The position numbers were made by a program, and so were the translations under genes. A stretch of 62,789 nt of DNA, counting the filler, from Stramenopiles sp. TOSAG23-6 (Eukaryota): the NCBI GenBank assembly GCA_900128565.1. It is 15 parts of 15 records of this genome, joined end to end, with 100 filler letters (N's around TTAATTAATTAA, not from the genome) between each part and the next. Parts side by side here need not be neighbours in the genome. Positions count along the whole stretch, not along the records: positions 1 to 4,113 come from LT637262.1; positions 4,214 to 8,324 come from LT637263.1; positions 8,425 to 12,530 come from LT637264.1; positions 12,631 to 16,732 come from LT637265.1; positions 16,833 to 20,933 come from LT637266.1; positions 21,034 to 25,132 come from LT637267.1; positions 25,233 to 29,325 come from LT637268.1; positions 29,426 to 33,517 come from LT637269.1; 7 more parts are not named here. One strand, given 5' to 3'. The notes below the pieces were generated by a model. That model was not told the origin of the DNA. It saw nothing but the letters and a program-made list of their open reading frames with translations, and did no database searches. Positions 128 to 32,411 of the stretch are shown here, one piece after another (within the stretch, counting starts at the first letter, position 1; every line of letters begins with the position of its first letter).

Positions 128-1622
128 CATCACGCACGTAGAAATTCTATGAGATTGTTTCTGAAACTCGTTTGTTTATTACCTAAATATCAAAACGAAA
201 ATACAAACAAGATTAAGAATTCTGGAGCAAAGGCATGTATGGTTTATTTGTTTTTAATTCTGATTTTGTTTTCGTACGTAATTTTGTACCTAACGAAAAA
301 ACAAATTTGAAATATTTTTCCAAAATACATGGGTCAATGATTTTCTTTTGAATACATCAAATTCGCAATCTTCAGATATTGTACATACTTTACATATTTC
401 AAGAAGTTTACATACTTTTGCTAAAAATCGAAATATAATTCCTGATTTTGGACTTGCTGTGCATGTACGTTTTCATTTCAATTTCGAATTTATTTTTTAC
501 TATGTAAATTTCGTACCTAACAAATTTCATCAATAAAAATATTTTTTCACAACACATGTTAGAAATTGTGCTTGGTGGGGTACTGCAATTTCATGGTTAG
601 AAGGATTAATTGCATCTATTGATTTTTATGATTGGATAATTAGGGCTAATCTCCAAAATATTGAAAATGTATTTACAATTCAACAAAGTGATACAAATAT
701 ATTGACCGGGAAACGCAAAATTAGGTATGCGGATACGAGTACGAGTACTAGTGATGCGTATAATATTGTTGATCGTATAAAACTTGCACTAGACAAGTTG
801 TTCCTGGCAGGAAAATTGAATTGTATGGGAGAATTTGAATATAATGACATCAACACATCGATGAGTCTTCCTCCTGTGTTGCTTTCTAAACTTTCCTCCG
901 TGAAAGCCGAATTTTTAATCAAATTATTCAATTTTTGTACACGTATTTTAATTGCAGATCCAACTCGATTGATGGAAAAAACTCAATCAGGTATTTCTGT
1001 GTTGAACGGGTCTTTCTATCATGTATTATTTTGTAGTGTTTTAAATCCTGGTATTTTTGGATTATTATATAGAGAAGCTGAAGGTGTTGATGCATTGCAG
1101 GAATCTACTCGAGAAATTTGCACAAAATTATGTTTTGTTTTTTCTAGTAGAGATTCAACGTCTACCGAAAACAATTTGCGTTTTAGCATGGAATTACAAA
1201 AATCCCATGATGTACTCAAAAGTATAATAAATGATGAATTGTACGGATTAAATGTACTGAATAAAACCGAAACTTCACATGCTAAACTAATTCCACTTTT
1301 ACGAGGATATAAATTATTGTGCAATTCTCGTTTAATTACAAATGACGTTTTATTATGGCATGATAAATCTTTGGGTAAAGAAATAAGCTCTTTTGATGTA
1401 TCAATTCAGATAGCAAAGAAATTATGTGGTGACGTGTCATTAGTTTCAAATGAATCAGATAGGATGACAAAAAAAAAAAAAATCTCCGAAAATGCAATGA
1501 TAAATGAGACTCCTCTGCAACTGGATATTTCACAGCATTTGTTTGATACTGCGATTAAATTGGGATGGCCTGTGTACAATTCGATATACAGTGTATTAAA
1601 TATTATTTTAGGATGTAGTAGT
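128..1622 (+). CDS. PRKDC: DNA-PKcs fragment, central HEAT region (exons 128-236, 331-464, 558-1622; partial)
   Basis: Spliced product HARRNSMRLFLKLVCLLP / SWLEGLIASIDFY / KAEFLIKLFNFCTRIL / SVLNPGIFG / LDISQHLFDTAIKLG resembles recalled human DNA-PKcs CRHKSIELFYKFVPLLP / WLDLLLAALECY / KCTVVVRIMEFTTTLL / LCEPASIGF / QLASGLLELAFAFG in the same order. Confidence 0.8.
237..330 (+). other. Intron, GT-AT (94 nt, contains no AG dinucleotide)
   Basis: GCA T|gtatgg...gtacctaac...aaaatacat|GG GTC restores the frame (A-W-V-N). Confidence 0.9.
465..557 (+). other. Intron, GT-AT
   Basis: CAT|gtacgt...cctaac...acaacacat|GTT AGA gives an open frame into the ORF at 702. Confidence 0.9.
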
Positions 1623-1738
1623 GTTTGTTTTCAAAATTTAATATTTTTATATTTAATTATTTTTTTTTGGAAGAAAATTTTGTACCTAATGATTTTTTTA
1701 CACCAAAAAAAATATATATATATTTTTTCACAATACTT

Positions 1739-3507
1739 GGCTGGTGCAATTCAATGTTTGTCATTTTTATTAACTTCATTTTCTTCGGCTGTTGGTGTCG
1801 ATACAAATAATTCAACAAGTACAGCAAATGAATCCATTATTATGGATTCACAAATGAAGAAGAAACTAGAGTTACGATTGAAGTTGTATACAATGGTTTG
1901 TACATTTTCATAATGAATTTAAAAAAAAAAATTTTGGTAGAAAATTTTGTACCTAACGAATTTTTTTAAACGATTTTTTTTTTCACAATATATGCGACTG
2001 GGGCATATATCTTCCAGAGGATATGTCAAGGTTTACTGTAGCTCAGGCATCATTACAATTAATTAGTAAACATGTACGTTTTCATGATTCATTTTTACCA
2101 ATTTCGAATTTATTTTTTTTTACCAATTTCGAATTTATTTTTTTTTTATCAATTTCGAATTTATTTTTTTTTCTTTTCCGTATAAAGTTGNTTTTTTTTT
2201 TTTANAAANTTCNCCNCCNAACNAATTTTGAATGTAGCATATTGTCACAATATATGCACATCTCTTCCGAAATGAAATGAAATCTAAAAATGCCATTGAA
2301 AATATATTTCATAGATTGTTAAAATGTTGCCATCATTATAGTAAAAAAACTTCAGATATTGGCAAGTTAGCTTTGAGTGCAGTTTTACACGAAATCTCTC
2401 TCAATTTGATAAAAGAATCGAATTTGGTAGATTCAAAATATTTATTTACATTTTTTATGAAAACATTTGCATCATTTCTTGTAGCTGATTCAAATGGATT
2501 TGATAGAATGATTAAAGTTCATATTGGAGTCACTGGTTTTGATATTTTTGCAACAGCTGTTTCAAAATTTGCACCAGATCAGGTCCCGGGTATCGTTCAA
2601 CAATTATTTCATTGTTATGACAGAATAATTCTACAACATAAAAATAAAAAGAGTGATAATAACCCTAACCATAATACAAAAACGTACCAAAATTTCGTAT
2701 CAAATGATAAAGTAGATGAAAGTAGTACAAATAATGTCAAAGAAGCGAAGAGTAAACATAAATTTGATTTTATTAAAAATCGATGGAGTGTCGCATCACT
2801 AATATTAATGAAATGTGGATGTACGTTTTCAAAATTGAATTTTTTATCTATATTTTTTTTATGGGAAATTGTATACCTAACATTTTTTTTTTTACGAAAA
2901 AAAAAAAAAAAAAAAAAAAAAAATTCACAGTATATATTTATCAGCCATTTCGTCATACTTACAATTTCTATCACTGAAAGAATTAGGTAAGAATATGCAA
3001 CTTCGTATTGAACATATAATTCAAGAACTTATTCTAGATTTTCCGAGTATTCATGAAAAACAAAGAATTCACTTAATTCAAGCTTTATTATGTATGTTTT
3101 CAAAATTGAATGTCTAATTTGTTTTTTCATACGAAATTATATACCTAACAATTTTTACAAAACAAAATATTTTTTCATAAGACATGTATGTTTTCAAAAT
3201 TGAGTTTTTTGAATTTTTTTTTTTCGTACTACAATTTGTACCTAACAAAATAACAATATATATTTTTTCACAATACATCAATATTTGTGTCACTTTTGGA
3301 CAAAGGATGTGTTTGTTTTATTTTTTTTCAAATTCGATTTTTTTTTTTTGGTTTTTATAAAAATTTTGTACCTAACAAATTTTTTTAGATTTTTTTTCAA
3401 AAATATTTTTCCAAAATACATTTCGTGATAAAAGGACAGCTGCTATTGGGTTTTTTCAATTACTTACTTTGAAAAGTAAACACAATTTGGTGGACATTCA
3501 ACAAAAT
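1739..3507 (+). CDS. PRKDC: DNA-PKcs fragment, N-terminal HEAT region (exons 1739-1899, 1994-2073, 2256-2820, 2936-3091, 3279-3308, 3422-3507; partial)
   Basis: LAGAIQCLSFLLTSFS / DMSRFTVAQASLQLISKHA / IFHRLLKCCHH / ELILDFPSI / SIFVSLLDKG resembles recalled DNA-PKcs N-terminal motifs VLAGCLKGLSSLL / DLKRYAVPSAGLRLFALHA / LFEVLLKWCAH / MQIDSFPQY / KVFLALAAKG. Confidence 0.78.
1900..1993 (+). other. Intron, GT-AT
   Basis: GTT T|gtacat...cacaatatat|GC GAC TGG joins in frame to DMSRF. Confidence 0.85.
2821..2935 (+). other. Intron, GT-AT (a CAG 5 nt upstream of the end is not used)
   Basis: GGA T|gtacgt...cacagtatat|AT TTA TCA is open; splicing at the CAG leads to a TGA stop. Confidence 0.88.
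3092..3278 (+). other. Two abutting GT-AT intron units (3092-3185, 3186-3278) with no exon between them
   Basis: Each unit has its own gtatgttttcaaaattga donor, cctaac branch point and 3' box; removing both gives LL-S-IFVSLLDKG. Confidence 0.85.
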
Positions 3508-4213: not shown

Positions 4214-6477
4214 TTTCATTATTTTCATTATTTTCATTATTTTCATTATTTTCATTATTTTCATTATTAGTTGTTAGACATGTTTCGTTCATCTCTGCAA
4301 CATCATTTGTTTCTTTTTGTTCAGTTTTATACATGTCAGATTTCGTGTTGTATATATCTTGTGTTTCATTATTATTATTATGATTATCCAAACTGCCAAT
4401 GACGTTACTACACTGTACATTCGATTTTGATTGAAATTGTTTAAAAAAATCTTCTTCCCCAGGATGGAGCCAACGTTCACTTTTACGAGCAATAACGCTA
4501 CATTTTGGATATTTTGGAGTATTTAACGGAGTATTTAACTCTGATGTAACAAACTTCGTTCCTTCATGACACGAAATCTTATTTCTTTTATCAAGTTTTT
4601 CTTGTGCCAAACGTCTTCTATCTTGTTCAGCTCTCCAATATACTACTAATGAAGGTACGTATTTAAAAGCTTGGCTACTATCCACTCCATCACCCACTGA
4701 TAATGTTGATTTTTGACTTATTTCTATATCACTATTCTTTGAATGTAAATTATTTGAATTTTCTATTGAAGTAGTTGGTGGTGTATCAAATTCTCTAGGT
4801 GAGGAAGATTTGGTACGAAATTTCGTACCAAATCCACCAAAACGTCGGAGTCTTCGATTTTGAATCTTTTCTGCAATAATGTCAAATTCTACAACACAAT
4901 TTGACGTTGGACAAAAATTGAATACATTCTCATTTGAAGCATTTGAAATATTTTCATGTTTTTTCAAATGATTTTGATTTGTTTGATTGGTTTGCTTAGG
5001 GTTAGGGTTACTTAAATCTACACCCTCATCTTCAGTGAGAGAAAAATCAAAGTCTTCAATATTTATGTATTTTGGAAAAATATTTCAAAAAAATCCAAAA
5101 AAAATTGTTAGGTACAAAATTTCGTACGAAAAAAAAAATCGATTTTTTTGTAAAAAAAAAAATAAAACATACATACCTCTAAGAATAGGATGAACTTCTG
5201 TTTTAGGGTTAGGGTTAGGATGAACTTCTGTTTTTGACTCTAGCGCAACACTTTGTGAAACATTTGTACCAATGTTTGTATCGTTTTGTATATTAGGGTT
5301 AGGGTTTTGCATTTTTTTTTGAACAGGTTTATGTTCAATGCAAGATAATTCATGTATTGTAGGAATATATACATATATTTTTTAGTTTTTTTGTTAGGTA
5401 CAAAATTTCGTATAAAAAAAAAATCTGTAAAAAATTCATTAGGGTTAGGGTTAGGAAAAACGTACGTGTGCTTCAACTTCTTTATACGTACCAATATACC
5501 CACAATTAAATTCACATTCATGTATTGCGAAGATAAATCTCTATATATGTATACATAAATTTGTTAGGTACAAAATTTTGCGAGGAAAAAAAAATAAGAT
5601 AAAATATTCAATTTTGAAAACGTACATATATCATCAAATGAGAATCACTCGCATCATGAGGGTTAGGGTTTGCATCATTTACCTTTTTGTTATCTAGATG
5701 TTTTTCATCAATATTTGCATTTATATTTTTTGATTCTTTTGTACTTTTTGTAGTACATGAAGTCTGTATTGACTCTGTTGACATTAAATGTAATTGGTTA
5801 GAGGAAGAAGAGGCCTCAGAAATATCAACTTGCTTCTCAATACCAGAAATAAAACTTTCCTGCCCAAGATTAATGTTATGATTACGAAAACAAATATCAC
5901 AGAGGTTTAAGTGGACATAACCCATTCCAGAAAGGCTATAATCAGCTAAAAACTGATGAATATATGGAACATGTGACTCAAATGGAAGAAACCTAAACGA
6001 TTTTCCATGCAATGAGACTCCTGTCGATGCACGTTTTGAAACCTTTTTCACATCGTCTGGGTTTCGTAGAGTGACGAGCAGAAACCAGCTAGGTTCATGA
6101 TAGCCATAGAAATTTATACGACGAACAAATTCAATATCAATGACTTCACGACCAAGTTGTTTAGTACGTCGGAGAGCAGAAATTATTTTATTACGCGAAA
6201 CTTCTTCACTATTACCAAATTCATCGAATAATTCCTGTGGACATTGCAAATAGAAATATGGTTTCACGCCATGTATGTGTACTACTGCTTTCTTTCCATC
6301 CGATGTTGCCCCATATACTCTTATTACAGGCGCAACCAATTCTTTTAATCTATACATTTTGGAAGAAACATCCTCAAGTAAAACCTCTTCACCTGTTTGT
6401 GTGTCCATCATATAGTGTTCAAGGTACAGCAGTTGTACAGTGTACAACGAAGACGCTTTCAATGATGTCTCACTCAT
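4214..6477 (-). CDS. REV3: DNA polymerase zeta catalytic subunit, N-terminal part (exons 6477-5626, 5519-5466, 5351-5173, 5064-4214; 3' truncated)
   Basis: PVIRVYGATSDGKKAVVHIHGVKPYFY, FYGYHE and FESHVPYIHQFLADYSLSGMG are REV3 N-terminal motifs; three GT-AT introns (5520-5625, 5352-5465, 5065-5172) restore the frame. Confidence 0.85.
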
Positions 6478-6775: not shown

Positions 6776-7620
6776 CTACAACCCGCCTAGCAATCTTTTT
6801 TCTGCTACAAACTTTTTCCTTATCGCTTTTGCGTTTGCAGATTCAAATTCAACTGGAAAAAATTTATTCGCATCAGCAGTTAATTTTTTAATATCATCCA
6901 CTCTAGAAAACTGACTAGCAATGTATTTTGGAAAAATATTTCAAAAAAAATCTAAAAAAAAATGTTAGGTACAAAATTTCGTATGAAAAAAAATTCGATT
7001 TTTTTGTTAAAAAAAAAAATAAAACATACACAGCTTTCATCAATATATTGATATCATCAGGTTCTACTTCGGCATAGAGATTACGCATATATTGTAAAAG
7101 AATATTTTCAAAATTTGATTTTGTTTTGTTAGGTACAGAATTTTTGAAATAAAAAAACAAATAAATTCGAAATTCATGAAGAAACACGTACATTGCATTC
7201 AAAAGAGCTTTGAGTGCATCAGCTCGTTCAGACTCCAATTTTGTTCGTAAAGTGGATAAATCAGTGTAGAGAGTTTTTGGGATGCATTTTGAAAGAATCT
7301 ATCAAATTTAAGTTTTAGTTAGTAGGTATAGTAGATATGGAATGTGCTACAAGAAAAAAAATTAAAGTACAATATTGTTAGGGTTAGGGTTTGTTGTTAG
7401 GGTTAGGGGTAGAAAACATACATAATATCCAGAGCTTTTTCTGGAAATATCTTCTTTGCGTGTTTAAGGAGAAATTGAATATCTTCAAGAGTTGGTATTT
7501 CTTCATAAATTCCTTTCACTATGCCTTCAATAGACTCTATTTTAATACAATCAAAATATAATACTCTAAGTTTCAACTCTAACTCGGCTTTAAGTTTTTT
7601 CTTTTCATTTTCTCGCCTCA
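6776..7620 (-). CDS. Unknown helical protein C-terminus (exons 7620-7422, 7281-7192, 7086-7030, 6920-6776); either a PI3K extension or a separate mis-joined gene
   Basis: Open frame across GT-AT introns 7282-7421, 7087-7191 and 6921-7029 to a TAG stop; two similar ~70-aa helical units. Confidence 0.6.
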
Positions 7621-7738
7621 ATGTATTTTGGAAAAATATTTCAAAAAAAAAATCTAAAAAAAATTGTTAGGTACAACATTTTTTTACCAAAAAAAAAAAA
7701 AAATCGAATTTCGAATTTAAAAAAAAAATAAAACATAC

Positions 7739-8212
7739 ATTATCAATTCGTCTTGTTATGTCACTGATGGCATTATCAATCAGCTTACGAAACCATTCAC
7801 GTGCCTCTTTTTCAGTAAGCTCTAGTTGCAGCATTTCCCGCATAAACTCTAAATCTCTCTGACCACAGAGCTCCGGTAATTGCATGCACTATGAAAAAAT
7901 ATTAAAAAAAAAACTCGTTAGGTACAAAATTTCGTACGAAAAAAAAATGAATTTGAAATTCAATATGAGAACCTACATCGGAATAGCCATTGAAAATAAA
8001 TGTAAAAGAACTCGATGAGAGCGGCGTGCAAGAATAAAGGCATTCAGTGCCAAATCAGCAAATTCTTTCAACTTTTCTGTGCCAGAGCTTCCAGCAGATA
8101 TAGCAGAAACCATTCCAGGATCAAGTACAAACCTACATCTTTCACGTCGATATCCTTTCATTGCCATTGTTGAACCGAGAAAATGTCCAAAATCAATATG
8201 AAAAAGCCGACC
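7739..8212 (-). CDS. Phosphoinositide 3-kinase (class I-like), C-terminal part of kinase domain (exons 8212-7977, 7883-7739)
   Basis: GRLFHIDFGHFLG...RRER.RFVL...LFSMAIPMQLPEL...LELTEKEAREWF. Intron 7884-7976 must end in AT; using the upstream AG frameshifts LPEL. Confidence 0.88.
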
Positions 8213-9373: not shown

Positions 9374-9577
9374 TCAAAAGTAATACCTTTATGTTTGTAT
9401 CAATTAGGTCAAACGGCTAGTTCCTAAGTCAGCTGACAAAATAGCACAAACCTGTTACAGACATATTTTTTTTGACAGTAACTGTTTCTTCTTGTCAACA
9501 GTTACTCGTTACAAGGATACTTACAGCGACATCCGCGAACATTTTGGTTTTGCTTGAGCAGCACCAAAGCTGTATCG

Positions 9578-11356: not shown

Positions 11357-11398
11357 ATTATTCATTTGAGTCTAGTACAAAATAAATTGAATTTCCTT

Positions 11399-12438
11399 TT
11401 ATTTTACATCTTGCATAAAACCTAATTTTGGTTTTATTAAAACATGCTTAATTTTCTTCTGNATCTTTTCAATTCTTTGGATGAAATGTAGCTGGACATT
11501 TCCTCTAATATCTAAAGTTTCCAAATTTCCAGAATACTCCAACATCTGTTCCTTTTTTTTAAATATATACAAATGTATCAAANTTTTACATCCAATAATT
11601 TTTAGATGTCGCATTTTGTTGAAAAATTTTGCACCACGAATATAGTAATTGTCTTCTGAGTAAAGTTGCTTTCCATCAGAGATCCAACCAGTTTCTGTAA
11701 AGGANGAGCAATTCTTTATAATTAATGTCTCTAACTGCATAATTTTACCGGGTGGATCGATTAATTGATCCAGTGTTTCNTCGTAAGTTCTATTCCATGG
11801 CCATGATTTTTCTTTAAATTTGTTGAATATTGCTAAATCTTTCTTTGGCTGAAGACCTTTNAGACTTTTTAAGTAATGACACTCTTCTATCCTCAACACT
11901 TTTAAAGCTTTACAATCAATTATACANGATAAATCAACAAGATAATTCATTCCATGAAAATGTATCTTCCTTAGTTTATTCAATTGTTTCAATATTTGCA
12001 ACTTCTTTTGATCTAATTGACAACAATTTGTTATAATTAAAGTTTCTAAATTGTGACAAACTGAAAGAACACCAATATCGACTAGACACCTTGCTTTGTG
12101 AATACAAAGTGAAGTTAGACTAGACACTCCGGATAACCACAAAGGTAGCACTGACAGTGACCAACAATGATTTAGTGTAATAGACATTTTAGTCATTTTC
12201 TTTATCGAATTCGTTTTTATTTATTGTGAAAAACATTTATTTTTAGACTTTTCGTTAGGTACGAAATTTAGTACAAAAAAAATTGAAATTCAATTTCGAA
12301 AACGTACATTATCTTCATTTGGTTTCGAGGATGACTTTCTGCTGAATGAATAGTTTGCATAAAAGTATCTTGCAATGACCTTTGCCCTATAATATTACCA
12401 TATCCATTCCAACCAATAGTAGATTCTAGTTGAACATC
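11399..12438 (-). CDS. LRR protein, C-terminal part (exons 12438-12308, 12218-11399)
   Basis: LETLIITNCCQL / LKVLRIEECHYL repeats; GT-AT intron 12219-12307 restores the frame. Confidence 0.75.
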
Positions 12439-12715
12439 ATGTATTTTAGAAAAATATTTCAAAAAAAATCCTTAGGTACAAAATTTCGTATGAAAAAAAA
12501 ATCAAATTTGAAAAAAAAATAAAACATACANNNNNNNNNNNNNNNNNNNNNNNNNNNNNNNNNNNNNNNNNNNNTTAATTAATTAANNNNNNNNNNNNNN
12601 NNNNNNNNNNNNNNNNNNNNNNNNNNNNNNTTGGAAAAATATTTCAAAAAAAAATCGTTAGGTACAAAATTTCGTACGAAAAAAAACTTCATACAAAAAA
12701 AAAATAAAACATACA

Positions 12716-16675: not shown

Positions 16676-16910
16676 ATGTATTGTGAAAAAATATTTCAAA
16701 AAAAAATCGTTAGGTACAAAATTTCGTACGAANNNNNNNNNNNNNNNNNNNNNNNNNNNNNNNNNNNNNNNNNNNNTTAATTAATTAANNNNNNNNNNNN
16801 NNNNNNNNNNNNNNNNNNNNNNNNNNNNNNNNTTTTAATTTTTTTTTTCATACGAAATTTTGTACCTAACAAATTTTTTAAATTTTTTTTTAAATATTAA
16901 ACAACAATTT

Positions 16911-18482: not shown

Positions 18483-18639
18483 TAAATCATCTAAAAAAAA
18501 AAAAAAATTGCGTCGGTTTATATTTTATTTATTTTGTTGAACTTTTAAAATAATAAAACACAAAGTTTTTTCAAAATTTCAAAATTGAATATTCTATTTT
18601 TTTTTCATACGAAATTTCGTACCTAAGGATTTTTTTTTC

Positions 18640-20904
18640 TTATGAAACATTTCGAACACGTTTACAAAATTCCATATGAGCTGGCCAACCCAATTTATGA
18701 CATTGACCTTTACAAAATCTGACCTTTTTACATGCATGTATTGGGGAAAAATATATATTTTTTTTTTTTTAAATTTTTTGTTAGGTACAAAATTTCGTAC
18801 GAAAAAAAAATAGTTAAAAAATTGAAAAAAAGTAAAACATGCACAGCGTTTAATTGTAGATTTATGTCCCCAAATTTTACAATAATGACATTGAACTTCA
18901 CCTTTATGATTTCCATGTAATGTGAAAAAAATGTAAAAAAAAATTTACATTTTTGTTAGGTTCAAAATTTTTATAAAAAACCAAAAAAAAAAAAATTAAT
19001 TTTTTTTGAACATTTGAAATAATGAGAAACAAAAAATTAAATTTTTTTTGTTTTCTATGAAAATTTCGTATGAAACCAAAAAAAATATTTTTAATTTTTT
19101 TTGAACATTTGAAAATAATGAGAAACACATACATGATATGCTGCATATTCAGCTAAACGTTTTTGTTTCTCAGTTTCAATATCGCCCTTCTGACACGTGT
19201 CATCACTTTGACACGTGTCATGATCAATCATTTTGTTTTTTTTTATTTGTACTTGTATTGTATCATTTTGTTGTTGTTGTTGTTGTTGTTGTTGTACACC
19301 ATTAGGGTTAGGGTTTGAAGGCTCAATAATACAACGATTTGGTTCATTATGATCAATTCCAATCATTTGTTTTTGAGATTTTTTTTGAGATTCAGTAACC
19401 CTAACCCTAGTACTATGTTGTAAATATTTTTTACAATACTTTTGTATAATACTTGCAGCCCAATTTTTTTCAAACATTCCCAAATCTTTATCAAATGTTT
19501 TTTCTTCTCTATTTTCATTTTCAAATTCATAATTTTGTTCATTAGGGTTAGGGTTTGTCTTTTTTACTGTTTCATTCAAATTTAAAATTATATTTTTATT
19601 TATACAGACTGTTGTTTTTGTTGTCTTACCATCATTATTTATATGAAATGTTAATAATTCATTACAGTTTTGAAATTTTTCTAAGAAATTTTTAATGATC
19701 TAAAGTGTGAAAAAATATTTTTTTTTTTTTTTTTTTTTGGTTAGTACAAAAAAATTTTTTTTTTTTTTTAATTTACAATTTTTGAAACATACATTATTTT
19801 TATGAATTTTTTGTGTAAGCCACTCAACAGATTTCTTCATCATTTCAGGAACTACAAGTGAACCTACAAAACAAGGATACAAATTATTGTCTTGATTTGC
19901 AATGATAATTTTTGGTGTATTTTTTGTTATATACAGCATTGCATTATAATCAATTTTTACTTCTTGAAAAGTTTCCATCAAAAAAACACGAAAAACATCA
20001 TTTTTTAAAATTTGACCTTCTTCACCACGAAATATTTCTTTTGTAAATAATTTGAATGGCATTCCTTTTTTCTCATCATATATTGTAGAATTTCTATACA
20101 TTGATGATATGTCCAAAATTTTTTTTGTAATTTTGTTTTGTAATTCAATTATTGACTTGTCCAGCATTTCTTTTGCAATTTTGTCATTCTCATTCTCAAG
20201 CCAAAAATATTCCGCAGAACATTCTGTACCTAATGGAAACAAATTAAGTATTGACTTTTGAAGAATATCATGTTTGAACTCTTCCCAAGGTAGCCAAGGT
20301 AGGTTTAGGGTTTGTTTGAGATTTTCATTTTGATAATTTTGATTATGTTGATAATTTTGATTTTGTTCATTAGGGTTAGGGTTTATGCCGGGTGGTGGAT
20401 ATGATAAAGGGTTAGGGTTTATTTGTACACTTGATTCAATATCCAACATTGGCATCATCTCCTGAGTGTCCTGAGTATCCTGAGTTATAGTAGAAATATT
20501 ATCAGGTACTACTAACCCTAACCCTAATGAATCATCATTACACCCTAACCCTAATGAGTCATCATCAATTGTAGCACCTGTAGCCGACGAAGTGACATCT
20601 CCTACAACAATTTGTGGTCTTTGTGGTATTTGTGGTATGGATATTGGTGAATTCACTGCTGCTTCATTCGGTGTACCATGTAGTATACTACTAGGGTTAG
20701 GGTTACTAGTAGATTGTATTTCTTTTTGTACATCTAGGGTTGGGGTTTGTCTCATTTGTTTTTGGTCATTATCAGACAAATCTGCTTTTCCTTGAGTATT
20801 TCGAATTACATAATTTTGTTTTATAATCTCAGAAGCTGCCGTTTTTGAAATATTTTCATACTTTCCTGAAAAAAATTCAACTCGTAACAAATCTATACGA
20901 TATT
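18640..20904 (-). CDS. IQ-motif and MYND zinc-finger protein, C-terminal part
   Basis: Splicing yields CHYCKIWGHKSTIKRCACKKVRFCKGQCHKLGWPAHMEFC (MYND) and AASIIQKYCKKYL (IQ-like); introns 19700-19792, 18915-19132 and 18736-18842; stop TAA at 18640. Confidence 0.8.
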
Positions 20905-21114
20905 CATATTTTGTGAAAAAATATTTTTTTTTTNNNNNNNNNNNNNNNNNNNNNNNNNNNNNNNNNNNNNNNNNNNNTTAATTAATTAANNNNNNNNNNN
21001 NNNNNNNNNNNNNNNNNNNNNNNNNNNNNNNNNCAATTTTTTTTTTCAAAGTTTTTTTCATAGTAAATGTTGTACCTAACAATTTTTTGAATTTTTTTTT
21101 TTTCAACAATATAG

Positions 21115-22044
21115 GTGAAAGTCTTATCAATGTCAGTATTTCAGGTTCTACTGATGAAAAACAAAGTTATGTATTGCATTCGAATGATTTGAAGTTTGAT
21201 TTAGATACATTGGCTTTAAAAAAGAAAAAACGTCGTTTGAAAAAAAAGGGAAAAAAAGATGAAAATGTTGATGAAAAAACTGAAAATGATGTTGAAAATG
21301 ATGGTGAAAATGATGAAAAAGCTGAAAATGATGATGAAAATGATGAAAATGTTGATGAAAAAACTGAAAATGTTGAAAATGATGTTGAAAAAAATGATGA
21401 TGAAAAAAATGAAAATGATGATGATGAAAAAAATGATGATGCTGAAAATAATGATGATGAAAATAATGATGAAAATGATGATGAAAAAACTAAAGGAAAT
21501 GAAGTTGACACGAAACATTTAAAACAGGTTTGTACACTAATGATGGCACGAAATGGTAAAAAAGTTCTTTCAAATATTTCTGGTTTTTACAAAGATGTAT
21601 GTTTAAATTTTTTTTTTTTATTTCACAATTTTTTTTCAATTTTTTTCAATTTTTTTTTTCGTACGAAATTTCGTACCTAACAAAAAAAATGTAAAAAAAA
21701 AAAAATATTTCTTTACAATATTTATTACAAGTCATACATTACGAAAAAAGTTGTGCTACACGTGGCAAACTGTCTGTCATCAACCAGCGAGACCAAAATT
21801 ATTGAAACGTGAAAAATGTTTGGTTAAATTAATTAAAAATCTCCAAAACAAAGATTTTACAAATGTTGAAAAATTGTTGGATTGTGCAAAAAAAATTCCA
21901 AAAAAAAAGAAAAGTAAAAGCAAAAGTGAAAAAAATGATGAAAAAAATGATGAACAAAATAAAAACAAAACTGACCAAAATGAAGAAAAAGATGAAAAAG
22001 ATGATGAAAAAGATGATGAAAANGATGAAGAAAAAGAATTGTAA
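21115..22044 (+). CDS. Acidic low-complexity protein, C-terminal part
   Basis: D/E/N/K-rich exons joined in frame by GT-TT intron 21597-21723. Confidence 0.65.
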
Positions 22045-22364: not shown

Positions 22365-25039
22365 GTAAATTTTTTTTTTTTTTTTTTTTTTTTTTTGGTA
22401 GAAAATTTCATACCTAACTAAATGTTTTTAATTTTCTTGAAATATTTTGTAGAATATAGATGTTGTTGGATGGACTAGACTGAACGATTGTTTTGATCAT
22501 CAAGTAGCTGATATAACGCCATATACAATTCTTGCAGTATTACATATATGTATATACTTTTTTGCTCGATTTGAGGCGTCATTTGCATTTTGTGTATGTT
22601 ATCCATTAGGGTTAGGGTTACAATTTTATTTTCGTAGGAAATCGTGTACCTAACTGTTTTTATTTTTTTTTGAAATATTTCTTCACAAAATATGCACTTT
22701 TATACATTTCTTGGGTTTGTATAGATTTCACTTATACTGGTAAAACAATTAATCAACAGATATGGCAAGGAATATGTATGTTTTATTTTTTTTTTCACAA
22801 AAAAATCGAATTTATTTTTATAAAAAATTTGTACCTAACAAATTTAAGTTTTTTTTTTTTTTGAAATATTTTTCCAAAATACATCATTACTTCTTGCATT
22901 TGTGTGTGGTTCTTTCGTAGATGATGTTGATTATTTATCAAAACAAAATGGATCTATTCAAAACCTTCCTGCAAATCTGACGTCATCATTTTTCAATGAG
23001 GATGCAGCTTATAATTATGCCCAAAATAAGTATGTTGTACGATATTTTAGTGATTTCAGAGCTGTCATTATTCTTGTTCTTCATGCAAAAGACAAAATCT
23101 TTGAATGCATTACTATTGTTGGCTCTACATTGTTTGGAGTATTTCATTATTCCATTGTTACGGAATTATTCAAATATTTTGCTTGTACGTTTTTTATGTG
23201 AACCCAATTTTTTTTTTACGTTTTTTTTTTTTACGTTTTTTTTAATGTTTTTTTTATGTTTTTTTTAATGTTTTTTTTATGTTTTTTTTTTGTTTTTTTG
23301 CAATGCAAAACAAAAATGTGTACCTAACAAATTTTGCAAATGCTTTGAAATATTGTATCAAAGTAAATGTTTAATTCCAATTTGTTTAGGACTTTCATGG
23401 ATACATTGGAGTACAAAAAGATCTCACAGACTTTCACGAAAAAGAGCATGTATGTTTAATTTTTTTTCAATTTGGAATTTTGTTTTTTATAGTAAATTTT
23501 GTACCTAACATTTTTTTTTTTTTGAAATATTTTTCCAAAATACATTTATTGCAACTACAGAATGTATGAATAGTCGTGAAAGTTTTTCGACTGTGATGAA
23601 GGATGTTCCCGTGTACCTGAAATTTCCAAACGCTGCTGAACAGTGGCTCGAATCTTCTGCGTGGCTTCAGCAATTATTAAATATGATGTGGCCGTTTTTA
23701 CGTCCATGTATCAATCAGGCAATTATAGCTAAAATTGACCCATTGCTTGATTTTTCAAAACCTAGTTTTATTACAAAACTTTGGATTGATTCACTTGATT
23801 TAGGATCAACTCCTCCAGCCCTCGGAGGAATTGCTGGAGGAAATAGACCTCCTCTTCGTGATCATGAATATGATTCACCTGTAATGGATATTGACTTAGA
23901 TCTTGATTGTAAAAGTGTACGTTTTCATTTCAATTTTTTTTTTCAAAGTTTTTTTCATAGTAAATGTTGTACCTAACAATTTTTTTTCAAATTTTTTTTT
24001 GAAATATTTTTTCACAGTGCATGATTTTCGCTTTGTTATAGGTGTGAGATTGTCTACCGGTGGTACTTTACGTTTTGGTGCAACAAAACTAGGTATACGT
24101 GGTATGCTGCGACTAGCAATGACGCAGCATAAGTTATGTGGTTCCGGTTTCCAAGCGCTTGACATCTCATTTACAGAAAATCCAATACTTGAATTAGGTT
24201 TATTTCGTACAAAGAAAGGATCTTTGACGAGCTCTTTGACTGGTCCAATCATGTCATTCCTTCAAAGAGATTTAGTTGCTATTCTTGCAGCAAAGATTGT
24301 ATGTTTTGTTTTTGTATTTTTTTTTGTATTTTTCTTTTTGTATTTTTTTTGTATTTTTTTTGTATTTTTTTTTCTTGTTTTCTAACAAAAAAAAAAAAAA
24401 AAAAATATTGTACACAAGATATGTATACCCCAATCAGTATCATTTAGATTTGGAGTGGGTAGAGGATGAACTAGGAAAGAACATGGATGAAGAGACAATT
24501 GAAAATGTGAGAGGCTCATTAGTAGTTGACATTGTGAAAGGAAATCATGTACGTTTTTTTTTACATTTTTTTACATATTTTTTTTTATAAGAAATTTTGT
24601 ACCTAACAAATGTTTGAATTTTTGTTTTGAAATATTTTTACACAATGCATCTAAGGGTCATTGGAGGGCAGAATCCTTTAAAAGCTAAAAAAAACTGTTT
24701 TTTTTGTAAAACTTCTGTTCAATCCAAAAAGTATATTTCAAGTGTAGTCCAGAATTCAAACCAGCCAGTATGTATGTTTTATTTTTTTATTTTTGAGCCT
24801 TAAAAAAAATCGATTTTTTTTTTCATACGAAATTTTGTACCTAACAAATTTTTTTGAATTTTTTTGAAATATTTTTCCAAAATACATGGAATCAAAAAAT
24901 AGAATTTCTGATTCAGGATATTACTACTGCAAATTTAACCGTTGAAATTTGGAACCATAATAAGAAAGGAGAAGATATTTTGATTAAAACACTTCAATTT
25001 CCTCTAAAATGTCTTGACACTTCTCCTTTTGTAGAGTAT
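22258..25039 (+). CDS. Extended synaptotagmin/tricalbin-like protein (TM segments, SMP domain, C2 domain; 3' truncated; start uncertain)
   Basis: ESSAWLQQLLNMMWPFL...SLDLGSTPP (SMP), AKIVYPN, and NQPVWNQKIEF (C2) are restored by eight GT-AT introns from 22594-22693 to 24772-24887. Confidence 0.85.
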
Positions 25040-25343
25040 GTATGTTTTATTTTTTTTTTTTTTAATTTTTATACGAAATTTTGTACCTAACAAATTTTTT
25101 TTTTAGAAAATTTTGAAATATTTTTCCAAAATNNNNNNNNNNNNNNNNNNNNNNNNNNNNNNNNNNNNNNNNNNNNTTAATTAATTAANNNNNNNNNNNN
25201 NNNNNNNNNNNNNNNNNNNNNNNNNNNNNNNNAAATTTTTTACCTAACAATTTTTTTTTTTTTTTTTTTTTTTTTTTCATAGAAAATTTTTTTATAAAAA
25301 TTAATTTTTTACAAAAAAAAAAAAATATTTTTTCACAATACAT

Positions 25344-25537: not shown

Positions 25538-25573
<36 letters not shown>

Positions 25574-26764
25574 TAGAAAATTTTTTACCTGAACCAAAAT
25601 TTTTTTTTTTTTTTTTTTTTTTATTAATGGCGACAGTTGAAAAGGATGCTTCATTTACTGGTATTGATCTAAGTTCATCATCTTTAGCTTATGGCGCTTT
25701 CCGTTGGCAACAAATTGTAAATTCAGATGATTCTAATGTATCAAAACAAATGAAATCAAATAGAGTGAAGTTTTTACAGAGGGATGTACGGTTTCATCAT
25801 ACACTTCAAAAACATTTTCATACGAAATTTTGTACCTAACGATTTTTTTTTATTTTTTTTACCGAAAAAAAAAAAAAAAAATATTTTTTCACAATATATC
25901 TTTTACAATTGACGTCATTAGAAGATCTTATTCATAATGAAAAACTTGATTTACAAAATGATTATTTTGATGTCATTGAAGTGACTGGGGTTTTACATCA
26001 TTTACTGCATCCAGAGGAAGGTCTTCAATCTCTTTTAAAATTACTACGAAAAGGTGGTATAATAAAAATAGCCTTATATTCTCAAAAAGCACGCGAATAC
26101 AGTACGTTTTCATTTCAATTTCGATTTTTTTTTTTCGTACGAAATTTTGTACCTAACAAATTTTTTTAGATTTTTTGAAATATTTTTTCACAATATATGC
26201 GGTGTATATGCAGCTCGCAGGGTTATCAAAGAATTTCAATTACATATGGATGAAAATAGTAATGATCAACTACAAAACACGAATAATCATACTTTTGTAC
26301 AGAAACTGATGAGTGACAGTCATCGAGTTGGAAGTGAAATGAAAAAGTTAAGATTTTGGGAAAGATTGAATTCTGATGTTTCCGATATTCGAAATGCTAG
26401 AGAGCTTATATTTACAATTTCAAATAATATAAAGAAAGATAGTAAAGAAGATGCCATAGAAGCGAAAATTGCACGTTTGCAATATGGAGACTTTCACTCA
26501 GTGTCTGACACGAGAGACTTACTCTTCCATGCTCATGAAAAAGCTTTTAATCTGATTGAAGTTCAAGATATGCTTGAGAGAAATTCCTTAGAATTTTTAG
26601 GATTTGATATTGATCCTATGGCAAAAGCACGCTTTGATGCATTTGTTCAAAATGAAGAGTTGAATAGAACCAGTAGTATATTAGAAAATTGGGATAAGTT
26701 TGAGGAGAATAATTCTGGTTTCTTTGCTGGAATGTATCAGTTCTGGGCTGTAAAGAAGAGTTAA
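25344..26764 (+). CDS. Class I SAM-dependent methyltransferase, C-terminal part
   Basis: ILFAGCGT, GIDLS.SSLAY, FDVIEVTGVLHHL, RDLLFHAHE and GMYQFW; GT-AT introns 25786-25899 and 26102-26198. Confidence 0.85.
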
Positions 26765-27338: not shown

Positions 27339-29249
27339 ATGTCGTCTGACTTTGTCTGGCATTCTGGGTATTTGACAAAACATACTGTGGGTAGCACGTG
27401 GCATTGGGGGCGTTGGACTACTCGTTTTTTTTGTTTATATAACAACCTATTAACGTATCAGAAGAATGAGAATTCAGCAGCTGGAATAAAGAGTGTTATG
27501 ATTACCTCTGATACTATTTTGAGTTTATCTCACACAGGAAAATTAGCTTTCCACTTAAAAACTCCTCAATTGTCACTTCATGCTCAAGCAAGTAGTAAAG
27601 AGGAATTATTAGTATGGATGAAACAACTTGAAGCTGCAATTAGAGCTACTCGAATGCTTTCTGGTCACTCTTGCTCTGGTTTCCTCACAAAGTTAGCTAT
27701 AAAAAGTAAACGTAATTGGAAAAAGCGTTTCTTCTCTCTCAATAACAATTTGCTCAGTTATTATATTGTAGACAATGATAGTTCAGTAATGGTAAAAAAT
27801 AAAGGTACTCAATCAGTTGCAACATCAAAAGGATCAAAAACTGGAAAAGTAAAACAACAAACAAAGAGAACAAATAATGAAGGTACTCAATCAGTTGCAA
27901 CATCAAAAGCTGGTATAGTAAAACGTAGACCAAAGCGCATAATTCAACTTGATCATAATAGCAGTGTTCGTGAGGTAGGCTGTGTCAATGGTAGAAATTA
28001 TTGTTTTGAATTATACGTTTTTTTTTCAATTTTTCATCTAATTTTTTTTCGTACGAAATTTCGTACCTAACAAAAAAAATCAAAAAAAAAAATATTTCTT
28101 CACAATATATATCTACCCCAACGGCAGTATTAGTAGCACAGGCATCTAGTGAAGCATCGTTGAAAGTATGGTTAAGATCACTTCTCACTGCTATCGGCTT
28201 AGTAAAATTGAACCCTAGTATCAATGAAAAATTTGTTGAAAATGTTGCTGATGTAAAATTGAACCCTAGTATCAATGAAAAATTTGTTGAAAATCTTACT
28301 GATGTAAAATTGAACCCTAGTATCAATGAAAAATTTGTTGAAAATGTTACTGATGTAAAACAAGATATTAAATTGAAACAGACTGTTTTTTCATTAGGTA
28401 CGAAATTTGATACAAAACGATTAGGTACGGAATTTGATACAAAACTATGGGATTACTTATTGACTAATGCAACCACCATAGGGACTTTAATAGATAGTGG
28501 AATTGATTCTAGATATCGATTTGATATGTACGTGTTCAGCATGAATTTCAAAATATATTTTCATACGAAATTTTGTACCTAACAAAAAAAATATTTTTTT
28601 TTTAGCATAAATATCAAATTTATTTTTTTTTCATAAAAAAAATTCGTACCTAACCAACCAATCTCGAATTTTTGAAATATATTTTCACTATACATGTGGG
28701 TTAAATTGTGTGGTGCTTGTGCTTGGGCGTGGCGTAGGCCTAGAAGTGCCTTTGAAAGCGAAAATGAAGACGTCATTGAGGTATGTTTTATTGTTTTTTT
28801 CAATGTCAAATTTATTTTTTTTTCGTACGAAATTTTGTACCTAACAAAAATTTTTAGATTTTTTTTGAAATATTTTTTCACAATATAGGCAAAAGAAGCT
28901 GAAAATGCAATTTTATCTAGATCGATGGCTCAAAGATCTCAATCGTCTAGTAATACTACAATGATGTCAACATCTGATAAGAAAGATTCAAAGTTTGTCA
29001 ATGGCTTTCGAAAAATGATTAAAAAAGTTCATTCAAAACCGAATCAAAATTCGAATGTGGAAATGGTACGAAAATATTTACTAAAGAGGCGAATTTTATT
29101 AGAAAAAAATAGAAAATCAAAAAAAAGACGGAAAATTTGTGAGAGTCCTTGGGAACATTTTGGACGTCTAGCTCAGGCATCTAGTAAAAATGCACCTTTT
29201 GAGTCGACTATAATGAGAGATTTGGATCGAACGTTTCCAACAAATCCTT
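27339..29249 (+). CDS. Tandem PH and TBC (Rab-GAP) protein, 5' part
   Basis: Two PH domains (SGYLTK...W.TRFFCL; SGFLTK...WKKRFFSL), plus GIDSRYRFDMWVKLCGA and IMRDLDRTFPTNP (TBC); introns 28013-28110, 28528-28695 and 28781-28888. Confidence 0.88.
28202..28361 (+). repeat. 54-nt coding tandem repeat, 3 copies (VKLNPSINEKFVENxxD)
   Basis: Directly visible. Confidence 0.9.
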
Positions 29250-29263
29250 TGTACGTTTTCAAA

Positions 29264-29316
<53 letters not shown>

Positions 29317-29425: not shown

Positions 29426-30449
29426 TGTATGTATTTTGGAAAAATATTTAAAAAAAAAATTAAAATTTGTTAGGTACAAAATTTCGTATGAAAAAAAATT
29501 CGATTTTTTTGTAAAAAAAAATAATAAAGCATACATATCTGTCATAACTTCTATCTGTATAAGAAGGACGATAACTACTAGTATGACTATTTTCATAACG
29601 ACGATGATGATGTCTATCATTTCTATCATTTGTTACACGACTTTGTTGACTTTGATTATTTTGTTGACTTTGATTATTTTGTTGACTTTGTTGATTTCGA
29701 TTATTTTGTTGACTTCGATTATTTTGATTATTTTGATTTCCATTACATATTAAATTATTTTGTTGACTTTGATTATTTCTATTATTTTGAGTATCAAACA
29801 CAGCGTTTACAAAAACAGAAAAATATTCTACAAGATCATTTTTATCCTTGGCATTTATTAATTTCAAAAAATTTCCACGAGTTGATTTTTTATTACTGTA
29901 TTTTGTAAAAATATTTCAAAATTTTTTTTTTAGTTTCAAAAAAAAATTTGTTAGGTACGAAATTCCCTATGAAAAAATTTAAAAAAAAACAATTCATACA
30001 AAAGAAATAAATAAAACATACATAGTTTTGCTTACATAATTAGCAATAACAAACAACATTCGATATCCAATTAATGTAGCCGTATTTACACCTTTCATTG
30101 CACCTTGAATACAATTTTGATCGTTGTCTTGGTTAGATGTTTCATTATTATTATTGGTTGGTAATTGATGCATTAAATATGTAACGTAATTACGAATATT
30201 TTGATTGGGTTGAAATATTTCTGTTGCTATTTGTATCATATTTCTTGGATTATATTCGACAATTGACATTGTATCATCATTTTGAATTGATGTTAATTCA
30301 TGATTTTGTGTAGTTTGTATTGTGAAAAAATATTTTTTATTTTTTTTTTTTTTGTGAGTAAAAAAAAATATTTTGTATGAAATTTTCAAAAAAAAAAAAA
30401 AAAAAAAAANAAAAAAAAAAAAAAAAAAAANATTTTTTTTTTAAAAAAN

Positions 30450-30482
<33 letters not shown>

Positions 30483-32411
30483 ATGATAAAAACCTACGAG
30501 ATGATCGTTTTTCTGTTCCTAATGTTAAACCATTATATTGTACCGACATCATTCTATTATAGACTTGAAGAGCATCATCTTGAGTTAATTTAAAATTTCG
30601 NTTTTGTTTTTTGTACTCTTTTTTTCTTTCTTTAAGAATTTTTAGTTGTGTTGAAAGTACGTTATAAGCGGATTGAAGTAAATGATTTTGGTGCGACACT
30701 GGGCACACAAACCAATGCAACAGTCTATGATTATACGTGTATGTCATATTTAATTTTGTTGCTGATCGTCCATTCAAAATCCACATGTAGTACGAAAACA
30801 ACACGAAATCATGAAAAAAATCATTAGGTACGAAATTTACTATGAAAAAAAAAAAAAAAATCATGATGTGAAAAAACGTACTTGTCTCTACAGTTTAATA
30901 AATGACATCCAATAATTTTAACGTTTTTTGCCCATTGTTCTTTTTTTTGGCCAGTTACAGTTGCCATATATTCCTTTCGGTAACAACATGAGTGTGTTAA
31001 CATCGTTATGACTTTTGTCTCATGCCAGTTACCATGCGCGACTGAATAAGGACATGGAATTTGACGCTCAGGATTATTTTGAATTTTACAAAAGTTTTCA
31101 ATTAATTTTTTATTTTGTTCTTCTTTTTCATTTCTTTCGTCTTCAGCAATTTGTTTATCTCGTTCAAGCTGATTATTTTCCACTTGAGCTCTGCGTAGTC
31201 TTTCTTGAGCTTGTTCATTTTTTCCTTTTAATAAACTGTAAGCAATATTAAAAAAAAGGAATCTTTTTTCGTTAGGTATGAAATTATCTACCAAAAAAAA
31301 AAAAAAATTCATGATGAAAAAATACAAACTTCGTTAAGTTCTTCAAGTTTAGTTCTTTTAACCTTAAGTTTTTCTTCTCGTGTTATTCGCTCATGTTTAT
31401 GTTCTCTTATCGTTTTACTATATCTGGTCGTTAATTGAGTCATATATTGTAGAAAAATATTTCAATTTTGTTTTTTTGTTAGGTACAAAATTTACTATGA
31501 AAAAAACAAATCCGAAAAAAAAACTTTGAAGTGAATGAAACCTACAATCTTTTTTTTAGTTCTTCTTTTTCTTTTTCCATTGCAACCAATTTACTTTCAC
31601 CTAATTTATATTCCCAATATGTATCATGATAGTCAACCAAAATTTCATCTCCCTTTTTAACATTATTTTTTATAACAACTGCAAGTAATGGTAAATCAAG
31701 AAACGTAAACGTAAAAAAAGTGGCATTTCCATTTTCAGGAATGCGCTGACGGGCTCCATAAAACTCTTGCATTTTTCTCCAATCGTTAATTGATGCTAAT
31801 GCAGTTCTTCGATCCATGATGTACCCATCCATTGAAATATGATTATTTTTATACATCTTTTCAACTGCCTCAGAGGCGCTTTCTTTTGTTAGACCGAATG
31901 AATAGTTATCTCGTCCGTGTCCTGTGGTGTTTTCCAAATCCCTAAGCACTTTATCATACAAAATCTCACCACCGTAGAGAAGCGGAATGATAGTATACTT
32001 TTGAAGATTTGATCTAGCAACAAGTTTGAACGCTATATCTCCACCGAACTTACGAGCAGGGTGTTGCTCATCTTCTATAAACTTAATTTTTACATATTTT
32101 TGCCATTCGTCTGGGTCGGAACGGAGGCACTGTCGGATGTTTCTCATATGTTCCATTGTCGGGAAGGTAAAATCTTTACTGTAAAAATCATCCACACGTT
32201 GTACATCACTTTGGTGATCACACTTAATAGGTAATTTCAGGCGTAGAATAAAATCTGTTTCTTTTGTAGAATTTTCAACTCTCTCAAAATGTTTTCTTAG
32301 TTTTTTTTTGGTTTGACGCAGAGGAAGTTTTTCGAATAATTCTTCTTTAATATATATGCCAGCAGTCTCAGTGTACCCATATGGAGGCTTTGGTACTGAG
32401 CCGTGACTCAT
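29426..32411 (-). CDS. SET-domain protein with coiled coil and Cys/His-rich region; distal exons may be mis-joined
   Basis: YGGEIL...ASINDWR...NVKKGDEILVDYHDTYW (SET); introns 31442-31545 and 30785-30881 (GT-AT) and 29896-30021 (GT-AG); two further junctions are unresolved. Confidence 0.7.

Follow-up and report, generated by a model that had tools for sequence, protein, structure and literature searches.

The introns carried by a stretch of 62,789 bases of the stramenopile Stramenopiles sp. TOSAG23-6 (assembly GCA_900128565.1; this whole stretch is hereafter the window) were analyzed and found to share one layout; they are probably U2-type introns of a single introner-like family with a GT-AT boundary and an AG-ended minority, in an uncultured marine protist. 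The elements of this family are removed from transcripts as introns. The window consists of 15 contigs of 4,072-4,113 bases each with N44-TTAATTAATTAA-N44 spacers between them, and it is AT-rich (GC content per 2 kb, 22-37%). Words of contig 2 were present at 0.78 in two small DNA runs of one coded organism and at 0.05-0.21 in seawater metagenomes and metatranscriptomes of other studies; the occurrence in these seawater runs indicates that the organism is marine.

The common layout of the introns is GTAYGTTTT, a T-rich stretch, (TTCGTACG)AAATTTTGTACCTAAC, an A/T tract and then TTGAAATATTTTTYCAMAATAYAT. Position tables and an alignment of the cores revealed that all of these blocks are present and strongly conserved, and the copies are about 90-125 nt long (median 106). 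A profile hidden Markov model (HMM) was built on 35 curated introns and run over the window, giving 94 matches at E ≤ 1 and 76 at E < 1e-3, 65 of the latter remaining once the duplicate contigs 12 and 14 are set aside. This corresponds to some 60 intron loci, at a density near one per kb, on 14 of the 15 contigs, 13 of them through HMM matches and contig 15 through a truncated copy at its start that was recognized by eye only. An earlier sequence-only reading had placed the layout in unrelated genes on 14 of the 15 contigs, which proved right; it had also confined the family to positions 237..31545, and copies do occur throughout that range, but the family reaches 58769. Every intron recognized in the contigs belongs to the family, and none was seen without its boxes. 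The weak HMM matches on the opposite strand were mostly the palindromic core in reverse reading, and when ACCTAA[CT] was listed with its flanks, 89 occurrences displayed the same layout on both strands. Two pairs of contigs repeat each other: contig 12 does not differ at all from contig 11, and contig 14 matches contig 5 at 99.3%, with 3 mismatches and 5 gap openings, one of them a tandem-repeat length change. The introns of such near-duplicates agree as well. Five loci have abutting copies or internally duplicated modules (3092-3278, 50561-50719, 28528-28695, 1-127 and 18003-18170): at 3092-3278 two complete introns abut with zero exon between them, and the other four hold two branch-box modules each. 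Both members of the abutting pair have a 5′ variant seldom found in other copies, which makes tandem duplication likelier than two insertions. Contig 10, the only contig without a family intron, is filled by a 1,200-residue cysteine-rich repeat protein (38297-41899, +) without Pfam match.

The junction of one intron was observed in RNA. In a 256-nt polyA metatranscriptome contig (record 15 of X11), positions 8166-7976 were joined to 7882-7819 and 93 nt were skipped. In coding orientation, GTAGGT...GTGCAT is one possible reading of the skipped piece; none of its readings is GT-AG, and an AG five bases before its end was left unused. This intron (7884-7976) interrupts a PI3K gene on contig 2, the catalytic exon of which was recognized through homology; a protein search with that exon returned one close relative, P0001 (EukProt, 79% identity), which is a predicted protein only. 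The product of the GT..AT cut aligned without gaps across the junction to P0001 (score 514) and to the distant PI3K P0002 (229). The product of the AG cut was frameshifted into stops, and its alignments halted at the junction (338 to P0001 and 167 to P0002). Protein searches with COG5 and with the read-through translation of an intron gave no match.

The reading frames pointed to the same cut. Once the nine family introns were removed from contig 1, a frame of 795 codons with 0 stops was obtained, the other two frames having 59 and 86 stops; two of these nine introns have no AG at all within 40 nt of the 3′ end. A junction frame test was carried out on the 39 introns with both flanks at five offsets (-2 to +2), and the GT..AT cut gave the sole longest open frame in 29 of them and a tie in 3. 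According to the position tables, GT stands at the 5′ end of 37 of the 41 curated introns; the 3′ end as first curated was AT in 33, AG in 3 and TT in 2, two of the other three being AT in the final coordinates, in which AT makes up about 85% of copies. The distance from the branch A to the 3′ end has a median of 41 nt (range 33-60), and 14 of the 37 non-AG introns contain an unused AG between the branch box and the 3′ end. The introns thus have the GT and the branch point of the canonical GT-AG class and lack its AG at the 3′ end. The conserved ...ATACAT listed in the sequence-only reading, where this role went unnoticed, is read here as the 3′ splice site itself. When public collections were scanned with a 20-nt core pattern, metagenome contigs yielded 1 locus (L001, from another collection), a true copy of 104 nt with all three boxes, GT...AT and in frame, with 178 + 47 open codons. 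The sole locus in genome contigs (L002) was rejected: it lies in a bacterial gene, lacks every other box and represents a chance match. Viral contigs gave 0 matches. A search of the window against Rfam returned no match and no snRNA.

The family is also marked by the 16-nt palindrome GTACGAAATTTCGTAC, for which 35 matches at ≤2 mismatches were obtained versus 0.02 expected from shuffles. Three matches are perfect (at 4813, 21661 and 28051), the one at 4813 lying within a coding exon, and at unique loci 2 of 60 intronic cores are perfect; the perfect palindrome before CTAAC described in the sequence-only reading does exist (e.g., 21661-21676) but is rare. The usual core form is TTTC[G/A]TACGAAATTTTGTACCTAAC, and CG steps are often replaced (CA 18 vs CG 16 at the first, TG 47 vs CG 8 at the third). 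Nearly all columns of the 3′ arm and CTAAC show 90% conservation or more; C20, C21, A23 and A24 never vary, and T22 and C25 are kept in at least 55 of 60 cores. The 5′ arm varies without compensation. A hairpin maintained by selection, as had been suggested, found no support in the 60 cores: pairing was seen in 63.1% of cells vs 62.3% shuffled (107 of 500 shuffles as high), sliding the hairpin partner by -2 paired more cells (70.6%), and no covariation was detected (score 0.093 vs 0.078 shuffled, reached by 59 of 500). The related suggestion of an extended splice signal holds for part of the element, namely AAATTTTGTACCTAAC and the last ~22 nt, with 80-100% conservation per position. We conclude that the palindrome was probably inherited from the source sequence and that selection acts on its branch-proximal half alone, which would serve as an extended branch box.

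Fragments of the intron core were also observed in exons, at 4809-4832 (-) and 28386-28444 (-). The former has the sense orientation, includes the perfect palindrome at 4813 and is translated FGTKFRTK; the latter comprises two tandem 27-nt core copies in antisense, translated LGTKFDTKR / LGTEFDTKL. The HMM E-values of these fragments (0.015, 0.004 and 0.08) are suggestive only.

Copying from a few master sequences was evident from variants linked across the introns, which define subfamilies. A at +10 together with CC at -11/-10 was found in 10 of 12 introns vs 0 of 28 of the rest (Fisher p 8e-8), and T at +4 was linked with A at -8 (p 4e-4); the linked sites are ~100 nt apart and are not complementary to one another. 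Among 703 pairs of single-module introns, 186 were at least 0.70 identical and 20 at least 0.80 (maximum 0.94), against 25 and 0 pairs in a null in which the three signal boxes were kept and the spacers shuffled. The closest pairs lie in unrelated genes and are 0.86-0.94 identical over their full length. Depth was determined for contig 2 only, from seawater DNA and RNA contigs at 90% likeness: the bins of well-conserved copies reached 1.6e4-6.4e4 in run X3 (DNA), their maximum in RNA runs being 1.9e4 and the best-conserved copies spanning 10^3-10^4.8 over DNA and RNA together, and two divergent copies reached 70-150; exon bins were mostly at 0-10, uncovered ones carrying no evidential weight, but 7250-7525 was far higher. 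The X3 run had 8,072 contigs that matched contig 2, mainly on introns; its apparent joints were rejected as deletions, as they connect different copies of the repeat. An abundant conserved class beside unique degraded copies is the pattern of a repeat family. At least 16 of the 30 contig ends fall within an HMM match and three more do so by eye; contigs ending inside copies mean that the repeat fragments the assembly. Intron phases were 12/13/14. A phase-0 excess is expected for old introns and was not seen here, and the uniform phases give a weak hint of new positions. An introner-like family, one of the two origins that the sequence-only reading had considered, is hence supported by linked variants, full-length pairs, seawater depth and assembly breaks.

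The ends of the copies bear on how they were inserted. The upstream exon ends with AT in 24 of 41 introns and has T at -1 in 34 of 41, the background of AT before GT in long exons being 19%. The composite reading of the ends, AT/GTAT...ATAC AT/ (slashes marking the cuts), can be taken in two ways, as a short inverted repeat with a 2-bp duplication or as a 5-6 bp helix joining the ends; 7 of 10 introns had such an end helix in their minimum-energy structure. In A-type copies (beginning GTATG), GTAT(G)TTTT faces AAAATAC, an imperfect inverted repeat of 8-10 nt, and by our reading of the position tables, exon-end AT occurs more often among the younger A-type copies than among older copies. Intron 28781-28888 has AG both at the exon end and at its own end, the single such case (chance about 3/40).

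Several observations weigh against an introner-like family with a GT-AT boundary. Just one RNA junction was obtained, from a metatranscriptome contig at depth 5, and because ATG is shared, the joint leaves the cut ambiguous by up to 3 nt; the other boundaries rest on reading frames, which set length modulo 3 only. Seven of the 39 junctions preferred another offset than the predicted cut (one is a short-exon artefact, one has all frames open, one has TGA at the junction and the rest are unexplained), and the 795-codon frame needed two contig 1 boundaries to be shifted, one 5′ site by 2 nt to AT/GT and one ...ACTT 3′ end by +1 or -2. Relatives or low-complexity matches at 90% likeness may supply part of the depth. 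In the window, no longer copy with a transposase was found, no antisense copy inside a gene and none clearly intergenic. Intron folds were no stabler than those of shuffles (z -1.4 to +0.9), B-type copies (beginning GTACG) are nearly without terminal inverted repeat, and the young copy 6921-7029 is preceded by GT where AT was expected. Matches of 2-mers between exon end and intron end numbered 22 within introns vs 20.4 expected from pairings between introns; a target duplication is therefore not demonstrated by this test, the introner test of PMC9860276, which is blind to a duplication that is always AT.

In the PI3K gene (7621-7738 / 7192-7620, -), the predicted junction gives TGA at once. 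Past that point, P0001 has a conserved C-terminal helix, not found in the window, and then a lysine-rich tail like the downstream open frame; this would be explained by a 3′ cut displaced by 1 nt, or by P0001 having been predicted as a fusion of two genes.

Taken as an introner-like family, each copy would bring its own signals, namely 5′ GTAYGTTTT, the branch box AAATTTTGTACCTAAC and the 3′ terminal box GAAATATTTTTYCAMAATAYAT, and would be cut directly past the final AT, with AGs between the branch point and that AT being passed over. The palindrome, the TTCGAA block and other small palindromes may derive from the source element; the 5′ arm would be decaying mostly through CG-to-CA and CG-to-TG changes, with selection presumably preserving the branch-proximal arm together with the 3′ box. 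Complementarity between this box and the 5′ end (exon AT + GTAT vs ATAC + AT) could draw the ends together and mark the cut, and new copies probably insert as whole units after (A)T. Our leading guess, to which we give somewhat less than an even chance, is that a short non-autonomous DNA element duplicates its AT target and that splicing removes the element and one AT. An RNA route of the kind proposed for fungal introner-like elements, whereby a spliced-out intron reverse-splices into another transcript after (A)T, is reverse-transcribed and recombined into a gene, is considered nearly as likely, and both routes were kept because the end tests were mixed, with no 2-mer excess, one AG/AG intron and one GT-preceded copy. 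All curated copies are sense-oriented and most are frame-confirmed, their ends are exact, all signals are carried, phases are uniform, end matches have no within-intron excess and B-type copies have no terminal inverted repeats, each of which agrees with a passage through RNA; the inverted repeat of the A-type, the AG/AG end of 28781-28888, as a duplication would give, and the core fragments in exons, one pair antisense, do not, and the exon-end AT of the younger A-type copies fits any insertion model.

It is unlikely that no copying took place, that is, that old independent introns converged since a divergent spliceosome imposes long rigid signals, as occurs more mildly in intron-poor yeasts and parasites. 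Such constraint would agree with the conservation of the branch-proximal 16 nt and the last ~22 nt, with the presence of the boxes in every intron seen and with the lack of a variable target duplication, but it would leave the 20 pairs at least 0.80 identical through their spacers (0 with shuffled spacers), the linkage of non-complementary variants ~100 nt apart, the uncompensated variation of the palindrome 5′ arm, as in a decaying relic, the 100-1000 times greater depth of well-conserved copies over divergent ones and the partial cores inside coding exons; moreover, with about one intron per kb the genes are intron-rich, unlike those of rigid-signal species. We regard as very improbable an AT-AC reading shifted two bases to the left, which would assign the introns to a minor (U12-like) or hybrid class. 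For the 24 of 41 copies with an upstream AT it predicts the same mRNA as GT-AT, including the ambiguity of the RNA junction, and AC does precede the final AT in most copies; yet 17 of 41 upstream exons do not end with AT, GT stands at the proposed start in 37 of 41, and the RNA-supported intron would have to read AT...GC. U12-type introns have conserved 5′ and branch boxes and a short branch-to-3′ distance, whereas GTAYGTTTT and the box GTACCTAAC are unlike U12-type boxes and the median distance is 41 nt. An artefact of whole-genome amplification, chimeric assembly or window stitching can practically be discounted: the assembly is highly fragmented and contains identical (11/12) or 99.3% alike (5/14) contigs, but the element recurs in thousands of contigs that come from independent seawater runs of other studies, both DNA and RNA, L001 from another collection has the three boxes in frame, and removal of the copies restores long reading frames.

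We lean slightly toward a lineage in which the default 3′ splice site is A-U rather than A-G, and in which a still-spreading introner carries this site and a 3′ box that pairs with the 5′ end into hundreds or thousands of genes. If so, the spliceosome would have altered 3′ site recognition at both steps, and this would be a natural case of an intron-generating element and the splicing machinery shaping each other. Bursts of intron gain are at present best explained by introners; since surveys begin from annotated GT-AG introns, an AT-ended family in an unannotated single-cell assembly would be invisible to them. If the GT-AT rule applies genome-wide, it would provide a natural experiment on 3′ site choice in the second catalytic step, and gene finders would mis-predict most genes of the lineage and of its relatives in ocean metagenomes. 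The element also fragments assemblies, with contigs breaking inside it.

The genes in the window are ordinary eukaryotic ones according to Pfam (DNA-PKcs, REV3 N-terminus, Mon2, COG5, U-box/Sel1 and FHA+Myb), with further matches to PH, EF-hand and plant-type LRR. Some contigs contain single Ns here and there (2191-2223, 9146-11927 and elsewhere), and one run of them falls within the branch box of intron 2074-2255. Telomere-type hexamers (TTAGGG/CCCTAA), 2-3 per block, form 32 blocks, 21 of them at unique loci, from 3824 to 58387 of the window (e.g., 5203-5214, 19302-19313, 20512-20523 and 45369-45386), the chance expectation for 12-mers in 63 kb being next to none. They sit in exons, in introns and directly past stop codons; the exonic blocks are in frame and give NPNPN or LGLG in at least eight proteins, and both orientations occur within one gene. 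Since L001 also has such blocks after a stop codon (about 1770-1815), they are no assembly artefact. Plant-type LRRs and TTAGGG-type repeats would suit a stramenopile without proving one.

Table. Copies of the intron family in the window. HMM, profile match; frame test, junction tested for open frame; 795-model, contig 1 gene model.
Position	Strand	Feature	Evidence
237..330	+	Intron, A-type (GTATG...CCAAAATACAT), DNA-PKcs-like gene	HMM 1-104, E 2e-13; 795-model
465..557	+	Intron, B-type (GTACG...CACAACACAT); AG 5 nt downstream out of frame	HMM, frame test, 795-model
1623..1739	+	Intron ending ...ATACTT; frame maintained with 3′ end at 1736 or at 1739, exact position uncertain	frame test
1900..1993	+	Intron	HMM, frame test, 795-model
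2074..2255	+	Intron with single Ns and triplicated internal block	795-model
2821..2935	+	Intron; CACAG within 3′ box is not the frame-keeping end	frame test, 795-model
3092..3185	+	Intron, first of abutting pair	HMM, 795-model
3186..3278	+	Intron, second of abutting pair	HMM, 795-model
3309..3421	+	Intron, A-type; 5′ end AT/GTGTTTG	795-model
5065..5172	-	Intron, A-type; 0.94 identical to 6921-7029	HMM; bin depth 63562 in X3
5352..5465	-	Intron, telomere-like block near 5′ end	HMM
5520..5625	-	Intron after REV3-like N-terminal exon; divergent copy, low metagenome depth	HMM, Pfam, depth
6921..7029	-	Intron, A-type	HMM, pair identity, frame test
7087..7191	-	Intron, divergent copy	HMM, depth, frame test
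7621..7738	-	Intron, A-type; TGA directly past junction: just before stop codon, or 3′ site 1 nt off	frame test
7884..7976	-	Intron in PI3K gene; sole RNA-seen junction	X11 record 15; gap-free alignment to P0001, P0002
8213..8324	-	Intron cut by contig end	HMM
12219..12307	-	Intron	HMM, frame test
12439..12529	-	Intron at contig end, branch box CCTAAG	
12632..12714	-	Intron cut by contig start, Mon2 gene	HMM
15423..15517	-	Intron, Mon2 gene	Pfam, HMM, frame test
16116..16203	-	Intron ending ...CTGCTT	HMM, frame test
16410..16501	-	Intron	HMM, frame test
16676..16732	-	Intron 3′ part at contig end	HMM
16835..16896	+	Intron cut by contig start; duplicate 54543-54604	HMM
17062..17144	+	Intron copy, 3′ region with ...ACAATTTTAG; ends not fixed	HMM
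17511..17594	+	Intron; ambiguous frame test	HMM, frame test
18003..18170	+	Intron, two branch-box modules; 3′ end uncertain	HMM
18277..18387	+	Intron	HMM, frame test
18585..18650	+	Degenerate copy between two convergent genes; without GTAYGT, box CCTAAG	
18736..18842	-	Intron, 5′ GCATGT; duplicate 56420-56526	HMM, position tables
21044..21114	+	Intron 3′ part at contig start, ends ATATAG	HMM
21597..21720	+	Intron, perfect palindrome 21661-21676; 3′ end not fixed	HMM, palindrome match
22594..22693	+	Intron, telomere-like block	HMM, frame test
22776..22884	+	Intron, A-type	HMM, pair identity, frame test
23450..23545	+	Intron, A-type	HMM, frame test
23917..24022	+	Intron	HMM, frame test
24549..24650	+	Intron	HMM, frame test
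24772..24887	+	Intron, A-type	HMM, pair identity, frame test
25040..25132	+	Intron cut by contig end	HMM
25786..25899	+	Intron	HMM, frame test
26102..26198	+	Intron, top HMM score (57 bits)	HMM
28013..28110	+	Intron, perfect palindrome 28051-28066; 5′ = ATACGT	HMM, frame test, palindrome match
28528..28695	+	Intron, two branch-box modules	HMM
28781..28888	+	Intron with AG end; upstream exon end also AG	HMM, position tables
29429..29534	-	Intron, A-type, adjoins contig start	HMM, pair identity
29896..30021	-	Intron with AG end	HMM, frame test
30785..30881	-	Intron	HMM, frame test
31231..31325	-	Intron	HMM, frame test
31442..31540	-	Intron, 5′ GTAGGTTTCAT	HMM, frame test
33618..33670	+	Intron 3′ part at contig start	HMM
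42667..42777	-	Intron, GA...AG ends, open in frame; identical duplicate 46851-46961	HMM, position tables
46025..46084	-	Intron 3′ part at contig end, ends ACAG; duplicate 50209-50263	HMM
50364..50418	+	Intron 3′ part at contig start	HMM
50561..50719	+	Intron, branch-box module tandemly duplicated inside	HMM, frame test
54360..54437	+	Intron cut by contig end	HMM
58718..58769	-	Intron 5′ part at contig start, COG5 gene	by eye

Searches of the literature for a GT-AT or GU-AU intron class returned incidental mentions only, the supplements of the introner papers being outside their scope; those on MAST-4 introns and single-cell genomes returned nothing on unusual splice sites, and the branch box searched as a word gave primer matches only. 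Introners of marine algae and protists were reportedly described by Huff et al. in 2016. The comparison that follows holds for the available portions of the papers cited. Introners have been reported in Micromonas, Aureococcus, Symbiodinium, Chrysochromulina and others, with GT, GC or GA as 5′ sites, and in some families the element itself supplies the 5′ splice site and the duplicated target the 3′ one, so that splicing restores the original mRNA length (Gozashti et al., 2022; PMC9860276). Their 3′ sites are AG or AC, families with and without duplications and inverted repeats are known, and splice-site recruitment is varied (PMC9860276; PMC12130899); where a family had unfamiliar splice sites, it was inspected manually and kept only if transcripts confirmed it (PMC12130899). 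The present family resembles these marine introners in being short and non-coding, with many near-identical copies in introns of unrelated genes (PMC9860276), and differs from them in its 3′ AT in about 85%, in that a variable target duplication could not be demonstrated and in having short inverted repeats in one subfamily only.

In Amoebophrya, repeated introns are non-canonical, and the authors suggested splicing apart from the ubiquitous machinery (Farhat et al., 2021; PMC7789003). That system shares with ours a marine protist host, short direct repeats across the exon/intron borders and complementary intron ends that could pair. However, the Amoebophrya introns have no conserved dinucleotide and inverted repeats of 8-20 nt, whereas here GT, branch box and AT are strict and the complementarity spans 5-10 nt; unlike in Amoebophrya, the signals look U2-type at the 5′ site and branch point, with an odd 3′ end. 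Fungal introner-like elements are sense-oriented, have no transposon hallmarks and with decay come to resemble ordinary introns (van der Burgt et al., 2012; PMC3609843). Their copies carry all splice signals, as ours do, but they end with AG, are longer than regular introns and have stable folds, whereas the folds found here equal those of shuffles and nearly all introns belong to the family. Introns without GT-AG, the ends of which are proposed to pair, are known from euglenids and hemistasiid diplonemids (Thakur et al., 2025; PMC12621601); in contrast to those, which have no conserved terminal dinucleotides, the present introns have kept GT, branch box and AT. As far as the available text of these sources describes them, the combination, within one family, of GT, branch box and AT that are all strict sets the present introns apart from all of the systems compared.

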